Source: Escherichia coli (lineage in GTDB: Bacteria; Pseudomonadota; Gammaproteobacteria; Enterobacterales; Enterobacteriaceae). Taken from it: a stretch of DNA of 64,000 bases. The position numbers and the translations under genes were made by a program. Positions 26,131 to 26,418 of the stretch are shown piece by piece. Below the pieces are notes generated by a model, which made no database searches, was not told the DNA's origin, and saw only the letters and a program-made list of their open reading frames with translations. Location of the stretch: the NCBI RefSeq assembly GCF_011045215.1, contig NZ_CP049201.1, one strand, 5' to 3'. Position 1 is the first letter of the stretch. The number at the start of each line of letters is the position of its first letter.

Positions 26131-26418
26131 TCACTGACTGCAATTTTTCGATCCAGGGTATTTTCTGAATGCCTTACCATTGGGCTGATGTAATCCCATC
26201 CCGGCATGTGCCCGGCTGATGGTTTCGCGCATCTCCCCGAAATTATCCTGCCTTGCTGGTGGGCGTGCTGCCCTGCGGATACATTCCGCGCGACGTTTTG
26301 CCGCCTGTTCCCGTGCCTTGTCATCATTCGCCAGCATGATGACCTCAGCCCACCGCGCCGCCGCTCTCCGGTACAGGCCACGCGCTTCCAGTGCTTCCGC
26401 TTTGCTGTCGTGAATCAT
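26131..26418 (-). CDS. PerC-like small regulatory protein (tentative)
   Basis: 95-aa ORF MIHDSKAEALEARGLYRRAAARWAEVIM...; motif recalled as PerC family, not search-verified; ATGA overlap with upstream gene. Confidence 0.4.
   Translation of the reverse strand: MIHDSKAEALEARGLYRRAAARWAEVIMLANDDKAREQAAKRRAECIRRAARPPARQDNFGEMRETISRAHAGMGLHQPNGKAFRKYPGSKNCSQ

Follow-up and report, generated by a model that had tools for sequence, protein, structure and literature searches.

A PerC-family gene overlaps a gene for a FinO-domain protein

This study concerns a pair of overlapping genes within a 64,000-nucleotide stretch of Escherichia coli DNA (contig NZ_CP049201.1 of assembly GCF_011045215.1; hereafter the window), and in particular the distal cistron of that pair, a minus-strand gene at 26131..26418 that profile matches identify as a genuine gene for a small regulator of the PerC family (PF06069, phrog_994). 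The translated product has 95 aa, starts with MIHDSKAEALEARGLYRRAAARWAEV and reads MIHDSKAEALEARGLYRRAAARWAEVIMLANDDKAREQAAKRRAECIRRAARPPARQDNFGEMRETISRAHAGMGLHQPNGKAFRKYPGSKNCSQ in full. An earlier note on this DNA had likened it to the PerC/Pch family on the strength of an N-terminal motif, residues 7-26 of the protein, and had asked for a Pfam search. That search bears the assignment out with a full-length match to PF06069 at E=6.4e-32 and 110.1 bits (gathering score 22.6), which lies far beyond chance and spans profile positions 1-89 of 90, and phrog_994 is matched at E=2.8e-35. In an 18-sequence alignment of the family that takes in PerC of enteropathogenic E. coli (EPEC), the protein has all 12 invariant columns (K6, A7, L10, E11, G14, R17, R18, A19, A20, R22, W23, and C46), and L10, R17, R18, and A19 are still invariant when 57 sequences are aligned. 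It thus carries both family hallmarks, the N-terminal motif KAExLExxGLYRRAAxRW and a cysteine at about position 46. Both genes of the pair are under purifying selection (dN/dS of 0.1-0.35 in most comparisons), and copies of the PerC-like gene that are 97-99% identical occur in about twenty other islands.

By sequence identity, the gene represents a further lineage of the PerC family and is the orthologue of no experimentally studied protein. The family itself is small, with 347 clusters (50% identity) at E<=1e-3 among 1.84 billion representatives, and many of these clusters consist of the N-terminal domain of around 55 aa by itself. Short open reading frames (ORFs) annotated as PerC family are also found on many IncF/IncI-type E. 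coli plasmids, where the match covers only residues 1-33 of the query with 63% identity; the bare N-terminal motif is therefore widespread on plasmids. None of the defence models of PADLOC matched the pair or the adjacent genes.

The upstream gene of the pair encodes a FinO/ProQ-domain protein resembling RNA chaperones (26415..26957, minus strand; PF04352), and the ProQ-like character that the earlier note had given it is confirmed by a PF04352 match of E=6.5e-24 and 84.5 bits (gathering score 27). Its longest ORF has 180 aa, but homologues and the PGAP annotation place the probable real start at the second ATG (26945), which gives a protein of 176 aa beginning MTKLTINRK. A basic N-terminal part of around 65 aa that is probably disordered precedes the FinO domain, and profile searches against the PDB retrieved the N-terminal domain of ProQ (5nb9, 3.6e-15), FinO (1dvo, 1.3e-13), and RocC (7rgt, 2.3e-9). 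The protein nevertheless stays below the NCBIfam equivalog cut-offs of both ProQ (NF003434, 58.1 vs 127 bits) and FinO (NF010317, 63.8 vs 136 bits), and its identity to any plasmid FinO-family protein is at most 41% and confined to the domain. These scores mark it as a distinct FinO-domain subfamily associated with phage-inducible chromosomal islands (PICIs).

The two genes overlap by an ATGA at 26415..26418 on the minus strand, as the earlier note had described without naming the strand. Direct reading gives TCAT on the plus strand, that is ATGA on the minus strand, so that the PerC start codon (26418-26416) shares bases with the stop codon TGA of the ProQ-like gene (26417-26415). The Shine-Dalgarno sequence of the PerC-like gene, AAGGAG, lies within the 3' end of the ProQ-like gene, and this arrangement identifies the two genes as a translationally coupled pair.

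Directly 3' of the PerC stop codon, folding and a terminator scan reveal two tandem intrinsic-terminator hairpins (26061..26127, minus strand). The first is GCCGGGA-TTT-TCCCGGC followed by T6, and the second, which is also called by the terminator scan, is AAAGCCCGCAGCC..GCGGGCTTT followed by GTTTTT; together they fold with -44.4 kcal/mol (z=-5.25 vs shuffles). At the other end, an AT-rich intergenic region of 466 nt (26958..27423, minus strand) precedes the pair, and at least 6 copies of AAAAGTGGGG in both orientations are found upstream of the ProQ-like gene at window positions 27100-27425. This region probably holds a promoter, an operator, or an iteron region, and its repeats might serve an island regulator as operators or belong, as iterons, to a second replication module that has decayed. 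With the ATGA overlap, the AT-rich repeats upstream, and the tandem terminators behind, the pair therefore looks like a self-contained, terminator-closed unit inserted between replication and packaging modules, which fits the uninduced expression published for the related gene pchE of E. coli O157. There, 5' rapid amplification of cDNA ends found pchE co-transcribed with two genes upstream from a start just after the ori iterons, and pchE is expressed without induction and drops 3- to 7-fold upon SOS induction (PMC7369912, PMC6265319).

An Rfam scan of the island yielded no known small RNA (sRNA) near the pair; a weak match to a Bacillus sRNA merely reflects the double terminator. We also considered terminator-like hairpins on the plus strand inside the ProQ-like gene (26737-26753 and 26896-26912) as ends of a FinP-like antisense RNA, but rejected them because their stems have only 5 bp, because such sites are about as frequent in shuffled sequence (5 vs 3.1 +/- 2.0), and because one of them lies inside a protein-constrained motif.

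The PerC position is an exchangeable slot behind a conserved chaperone gene

The association of the two genes was assessed in a census of 80 viral-contig loci found with the PerC profile and 78 found with the ProQ-like profile, whose ORFs were analysed with hidden Markov models (HMMs). A ProQ-like ORF stands directly upstream of 58 of the 102 PerC ORFs, and 52 of these 58 pairs have the exact 4-nt overlap with the same GCGCATGA junction. Clustering at 90% identity resolves 19 PerC lineages, of which 8 are always coupled to a ProQ-like gene and 11 never are, with not a single mixed lineage. Seen from the other side, PerC comes next after 50 of the 78 ProQ-like genes, while at the other 29 the next gene is an unrelated one of 82 aa or 138 aa or already belongs to packaging, in many cases on capsid-forming PICIs. 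The arrangements thus include SSB-ProQ-PerC (SSB, single-stranded DNA-binding protein), SSB-PerC-82aa, and ProQ-82aa-capsid, and the pair itself is found behind three replication modules (P4-type primase, DUF927/TOPRIM, and AAA_25 RepA helicase).

In diverged pairs, the ProQ-like proteins are 87-92% identical and the PerC proteins only 59-66%. Compared with loci L007, L068, and L075, the ProQ-like gene of the window has a dS of 0.17-0.24 and the PerC-like gene a dS of 0.9-1.25, with the GCGCATGA junction unchanged. Such a jump in dS is the mark that recombination at the junction leaves when one allele replaces another, and the sequence comparisons mark the PerC position as an exchangeable cassette slot behind a conserved chaperone gene. 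By the same census, the ProQ-like gene is a frequent neighbour of this slot and not an obligate partner; each of the two genes is found without the other in related islands. Contrary to the earlier note, the pair is also not unusual: a syntenic island is annotated in E. coli cq9, where PGAP names the products of adjacent genes "ProQ/FINO family protein" and "PerC family transcriptional regulator", and in a megablast search with the 1.4-kb pair region, 320 of 5,426 complete E. coli genomes had matches, every one of them chromosomal.

Two further small genes were observed in this census. The 82-aa protein (MPVTFEEVQQHKKFHGFDDLETT...) has no Pfam match and is encoded after a ProQ-like or PerC gene and just before an HK97-type capsid gene in capsid-forming PICIs (L129-L141 and L056; for example L140 3531-3779 and L056 6289-6576), which makes it a conserved satellite gene. 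In several islands or their immediate flanks, a second and more divergent PerC-family gene (98-123 aa) lies a few kb downstream of the ProQ-coupled one (L174 12835-13131, L006 8051-8288, L051, L054, L060, L067, L071, and L075).

The PerC-like protein is predicted to be helical and to share a domain with ANR proteins

An AlphaFold2 model built from the 57-sequence alignment (mean pLDDT, the model's per-residue confidence score, 86.9) contains four helices at residues 5-12, 16-29, 33-50, and 60-73. When this model was searched against the PDB, nothing was found at E<1; the weak matches were TPR/MIT-type helical repeats or other helical proteins, with no recognisable DNA-binding fold among them, and a profile search of the PDB with the sequence gave no match at E<=10. 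The protein is thus predicted to be a small, all-helical four-helix bundle without a DNA-binding fold.

Among the 57 diverse PerC-family members, 47 matched the NCBIfam model ANR_neg_reg (NF033650) at E<=0.01, with a best value of 1.1e-7. The PerC-like protein of the window itself aligns to profile positions 8-54 of 54 with 14.4 bits (E=0.025), which is below the cut-off of 32. From these profile scores, PerC and ANR appear to be one superfamily that is homologous via the N-terminal domain of around 55 aa, though the PerC-like protein is not assigned to the ANR family. ANR proteins (Aar and relatives) are likewise small and helical and have no DNA-binding domain, though the PerC-like protein is longer (95 aa vs 39-80 aa) and has an extra C-terminal helix and tail. 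As cited in PMC11773190 from PMC5570504, and in PMC4038620, ANR proteins bind AraC-type activators and H-NS. Their genes typically lie near a gene for an AraC/XylS-type activator (PMC4038620); among the island ORFs scanned with Pfam, there is none of AraC type.

Given a helical structure without a DNA-binding fold and an ANR-homologous N-terminal domain, the PerC-like protein most likely acts on transcription indirectly. It would bind other regulators rather than recognise a promoter, and candidate partners are H-NS/StpA-type nucleoid-associated proteins, activators of the AraC type, or master regulators. Action via protein contacts would account as well for the fact that one and the same promoter is activated by some alleles and ignored or repressed by others. 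By analogy with PICI-borne relatives, its targets are probably surface and virulence programmes of the host such as LEE1/ler of the enterocyte effacement locus (LEE), csgD-curli, and flhDC-flagella, and in the quiescent island its expression probably comes from a promoter of its own. For the ProQ-like protein, the comparison with plasmid-borne FinO, FopA, and PcnR (PMC9977716, PMC7491321, PMC8053102) suggests that it most likely binds a terminator-type RNA hairpin of an island transcript, and the tandem terminators at 26061-26127 are a candidate ligand.

Characterised relatives differ in neighbourhood and in effect

PerC of EPEC (BfpW, encoded on pEAF of strain E2348/69) is 43% identical to the PerC-like protein, belongs to the same Pfam family, and aligns over the full length. 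With PerC and with PchA, PchB, and PchC from prophages of enterohaemorrhagic E. coli (EHEC), the protein has in common a similar size (89-104 aa), a location on mobile elements, and the invariant N-terminal residues. In EPEC, however, the gene upstream of perC is perB, which encodes a protein of the family PF06590 and not a FinO-domain protein, and the operon begins with perA for an AraC-type regulator. We had considered perB as a cryptic FinO-domain gene that would make the pair ancestral and rejected this, since PerB forms its own family and BLASTP against the ProQ-like protein gives E=0.086. That LEE1 is activated has been documented with PerC and PchABC, but with none of the PICI alleles tested to date, according to the passages of PMC11773190 that cite this work.

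Closer in sequence is PchE of E. coli O157:H7 Sakai (ECs1588; Sp7/OI-51, a capsid-forming PICI of the EcCIEDL933 type) with 50% identity. Its gene likewise sits on a PICI, where it follows the replication genes and precedes those for packaging, and is co-transcribed with upstream genes (PMC7369912), but the arrangement in Sp7 is 83aa-SSB-pchE-74aa-capsid without a ProQ-like gene. With 50% identity to ECs1588 and no ProQ-like neighbour in Sakai, the PerC-like protein was ruled out as an orthologue of PchE. PchE represses csgD/curli and biofilm formation and induces flhDC/fliC and motility (PMC6265319, PMC7369912). NCBI also uses the name "PchE" for a 54-aa protein (P0095) that is encoded behind a ProQ-like gene and shares 89% identity with the N-terminal half of the PerC-like protein; this is a different, truncated allele and not the characterised PchE of Sakai.

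The third relative, EcCIMP1_025 of the PICI EcCIMP1, has 93 aa and 46% identity but stands alone, with no ProQ-like gene upstream. It silences LEE1 in Citrobacter rodentium, and its authors raised a relationship to the ANR family (PMC11773190). The PerC alleles of EcCIEDL933 and EcCICFT073 have no effect on LEE1 according to the work cited in PMC11773190; we did not find EcCICFT073 in the two stretches of the CFT073 genome that we examined. With relatives that activate, ignore, or repress LEE1, it is uncertain whether the label "activator" given in the earlier note suits the PerC-like protein, and sequence does not tell whether it would activate or repress.

The ProQ-like protein has its FinO domain in common with FinO of F-like plasmids, FopA of pCol1B9, PcnR of IncI2 plasmids, and chromosomal ProQ. 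A basic N-terminal extension before this domain is also found in FinO and FopA (PMC7491321), and the genes for FopA and PcnR likewise adjoin replication functions of mobile elements (PMC9977716, PMC8053102). Unlike chromosomal ProQ, the ProQ-like protein has no C-terminal Tudor-like domain and ends shortly after the FinO domain, and no cognate antisense RNA was seen, the Rfam scan giving nothing relevant. Searches of the literature for FinO-like genes in phage satellites returned only a passing remark on Vibrio elements and no characterised FinO-domain protein of a phage satellite.

The pair resides on a phage-inducible chromosomal island

The earlier note had suspected a mobile location, and indeed the pair lies on a 12.2-kb island (23027..35232, no strand assigned) between comM/yifB and ilvL of the ilv operon. 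An exact 26-nt direct repeat, AATTAACTACACCATTAACTACACCG, is found at both island ends (23027-23052 and 35207-35232) with a looser extension to 69 nt, and these repeats are probably attL and attR. All genes named in the following lie on the minus strand. At one end, a tyrosine integrase (33956-35206; PF00589/PF13356) is adjoined by AlpA (33404-33592; PF05930, E=3e-18) and followed by an AntA-type antirepressor (32551-33351), a DUF4222/RgdR-like gene (29893-30183; identified by Pfam, 49% identity to RgdR of O157), and a P4-family primase (28148-29896; TIGR01613, 109.3 bits vs a cut-off of 108.7). Directly 3' of the primase gene, direct and inverted repeats of GGTAGATA/GGTAGACA at 27828-28122 mark the probable replication origin of the island. 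The order on the minus strand is then completed by a helicase fragment, the ProQ-like/PerC-like pair, and a packaging module that consists of a DUF2213 protease-like gene (24396-25067) and a TerS-like gene of 175 aa (23862-24389), identified with Pfam and PHROG.

The helicase fragment (27424-27771) is a 115-aa ORF that corresponds to the C-terminal quarter of a RepA-like helicase (phrog_2850, positions 347-465 of 465), and for the equivalent stretch in cq9, PGAP calls a RepA-family helicase pseudogene. The window island therefore keeps the remnant of a second replication module; at the position of this fragment, related islands have the arrangement helicase-257aa-SSB-ProQ-PerC.

As expected for a PICI of Gram-negative bacteria, for which PMC6092414 describes the reference architecture, the integrase is terminal with alpA adjoining, and the 12.2 kb between the att repeats are within the range of about 10-15 kb. 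Among the island ORFs scanned, there are none for lysis or tails, and the packaging genes are limited to the protease-like and the TerS-like one. With its integrase, AlpA, RgdR-like gene, P4-type primase, and packaging genes, the element is therefore assigned, on gene content, to the E. coli PICIs and thus to the phage satellites.

Some further observations concern individual parts of the island. RgdR (ECs1581), a regulator of LEE and motility in O157, has a functionally important RGD motif, and the DUF4222 protein of the window has HGD at this place. Beside the TerS-like gene at the island end, 3-6 copies of CAACTTGACACTTTT / TTGACACTTTTTCGCG are found at 23650-23861, which may be a packaging (cos/pac) recognition region. 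A 597-aa ORF at 30765-32558 (minus strand) has no Pfam match and a Cys/Ser-rich middle and is probably a spurious ORF that runs antisense to real genes on the plus strand. Inside it, on the opposite strand, lies a weak SymR-like Rfam match (31125-31197, plus strand; 37 bits vs a gathering score of 61).

Weighing possible functions of the PerC-like gene

With moderate confidence, we read the PerC-like gene as an exchangeable accessory cassette of PICIs whose protein would modulate host transcription through protein contacts, based on the sequence comparisons and on analogy with its characterised relatives. Several observations speak against this interpretation. Identity to the closest characterised relatives is only 43-50%, and their effects are opposite or null, so that neither target nor sign is transferable. 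The ANR link stands on sub-threshold HMM scores (14 vs 32 bits for the PerC-like protein), and a sigma-70 promoter scan upstream of the pair found 3 sites where 3.4 are expected by chance, none of them significant. Also, the 4-nt overlap shared across pairs could signify more than neighbourhood. Finally, indirect action is not proven because Abe et al. 2008 reportedly saw direct DNA association of Pch proteins by chromatin immunoprecipitation in EHEC.

It is also conceivable, if fairly unlikely, that the PerC-like protein serves the life cycle of the satellite and not host traits, either by switching on the island's packaging genes or by manipulating the late transcription of a helper phage as P4 Delta does for P2. 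As such a role would suggest, PerC always marks the border to the packaging or capsid module and lies just in front of it, but in the window strong terminators separate it from the packaging genes. It is retained in islands of non-pathogenic E. coli, Salmonella, and Citrobacter that have no LEE, its N-terminal domain is common to phage families annotated as "transcriptional activator" (phrog_10396, 1324, 2608, and 868), and EcCIMP1 affects helper-phage biology (PMC11773190). However, when the post-ori genes of EcCICFT073 were expressed singly, lambda was affected by rppA only (PMC6739421), and pchE of O157 is on in uninduced cells and goes down, not up, upon SOS or prophage induction (PMC6265319, PMC7369912), while host phenotypes of relatives are documented for curli, flagella, and LEE1. 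Far less probable still is that the gene is the decaying, non-functional remnant of a defective island. The island is indeed mosaic and partly decayed, as the ORF at 27424-27771 with nothing but the C-terminal fragment of a RepA-like helicase illustrates, and truncated 54-aa PerC alleles exist elsewhere; yet the PerC-like protein is full length with every family-invariant residue kept, larger divergences give a dN/dS of 0.12-0.35, the gene has an intact Shine-Dalgarno sequence, start codon, and terminators, and the nearly identical copies in about twenty other islands speak for a maintained gene.

That the FinO-domain and PerC-like proteins form a dedicated unit that works jointly in trans on host genes, either physically bound in a complex or by way of a chaperone that targets PerC-controlled transcripts, including PerC's own tandem-terminator 3' end, is in our view improbable. 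The invariant gene order and the identical 4-nt ATGA overlap in 52 of 58 pairs whose PerC alleles range from 59 to 100% identity would fit such a unit, as would a junction that outlasted repeated allele replacement, the recurrence of the pair behind three different replication modules, and the two strong terminator hairpins at the operon's 3' end, which are the RNA feature that FinO domains recognise (PMC9674577, PMC9977716). But terminators are found 3' of PerC genes in most lineages, paired and solo alike, and 11 of the 19 PerC lineages are never found with a ProQ-like gene, including the experimentally active EcCIMP1_025 and Sakai PchE. A different small gene occupies the PerC position at 29 of 78 ProQ-like loci, PerB upstream of the archetypal perC in EPEC is not FinO-like, and PerC and ProQ show no parallel divergence. 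We are similarly doubtful about a related idea, namely that PICIs carry a conserved slot of a FinO-domain chaperone plus a swappable small regulator in which the chaperone binds the tandem-terminator 3' end of its own mRNA or an sRNA of the host or helper. If this were true, the chaperone would control the dose of the PerC/ANR-type allele in the slot behind it, whichever that is, and the satellite could influence host motility, curli, and virulence programmes in a coupled way at both the post-transcriptional and the transcriptional level.

Significance for PICIs and the PerC family

Neither the PerC gene family nor the presence of PerC alleles on E. coli PICIs is new, and both are annotated as a matter of routine (PMC6092414, PMC11773190, PMC3378721): Fillol-Salom et al. 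reported that some E. coli PICIs encode PerC alleles (PMC6092414), and Flockhart et al. listed PchE among the genes of O-island 51 (PMC3378721). A ProQ/FinO gene is mentioned in none of these three or in PMC6265319 and PMC7369912. Modestly new are the results of the census, that is, a junction that is hard-wired yet facultative, the swapping of cassettes behind it, and the breadth of the ANR link.

As switches of surface and virulence programmes in E. coli, PerC/Pch proteins move horizontally, with PICIs as an abundant vehicle. The PerC allele of the window adds little to this by itself, but in about 40% of the PICI PerC lineages sampled, one and the same ATGA junction hard-wires PerC to a FinO-domain protein specific to satellites. 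Of the two halves of the pair, this protein is the less understood and lends itself better to testing. For the family as a whole, a PerC/ANR superfamily would argue for annotating its members as co-regulators or anti-regulators and not as "transcriptional activators".

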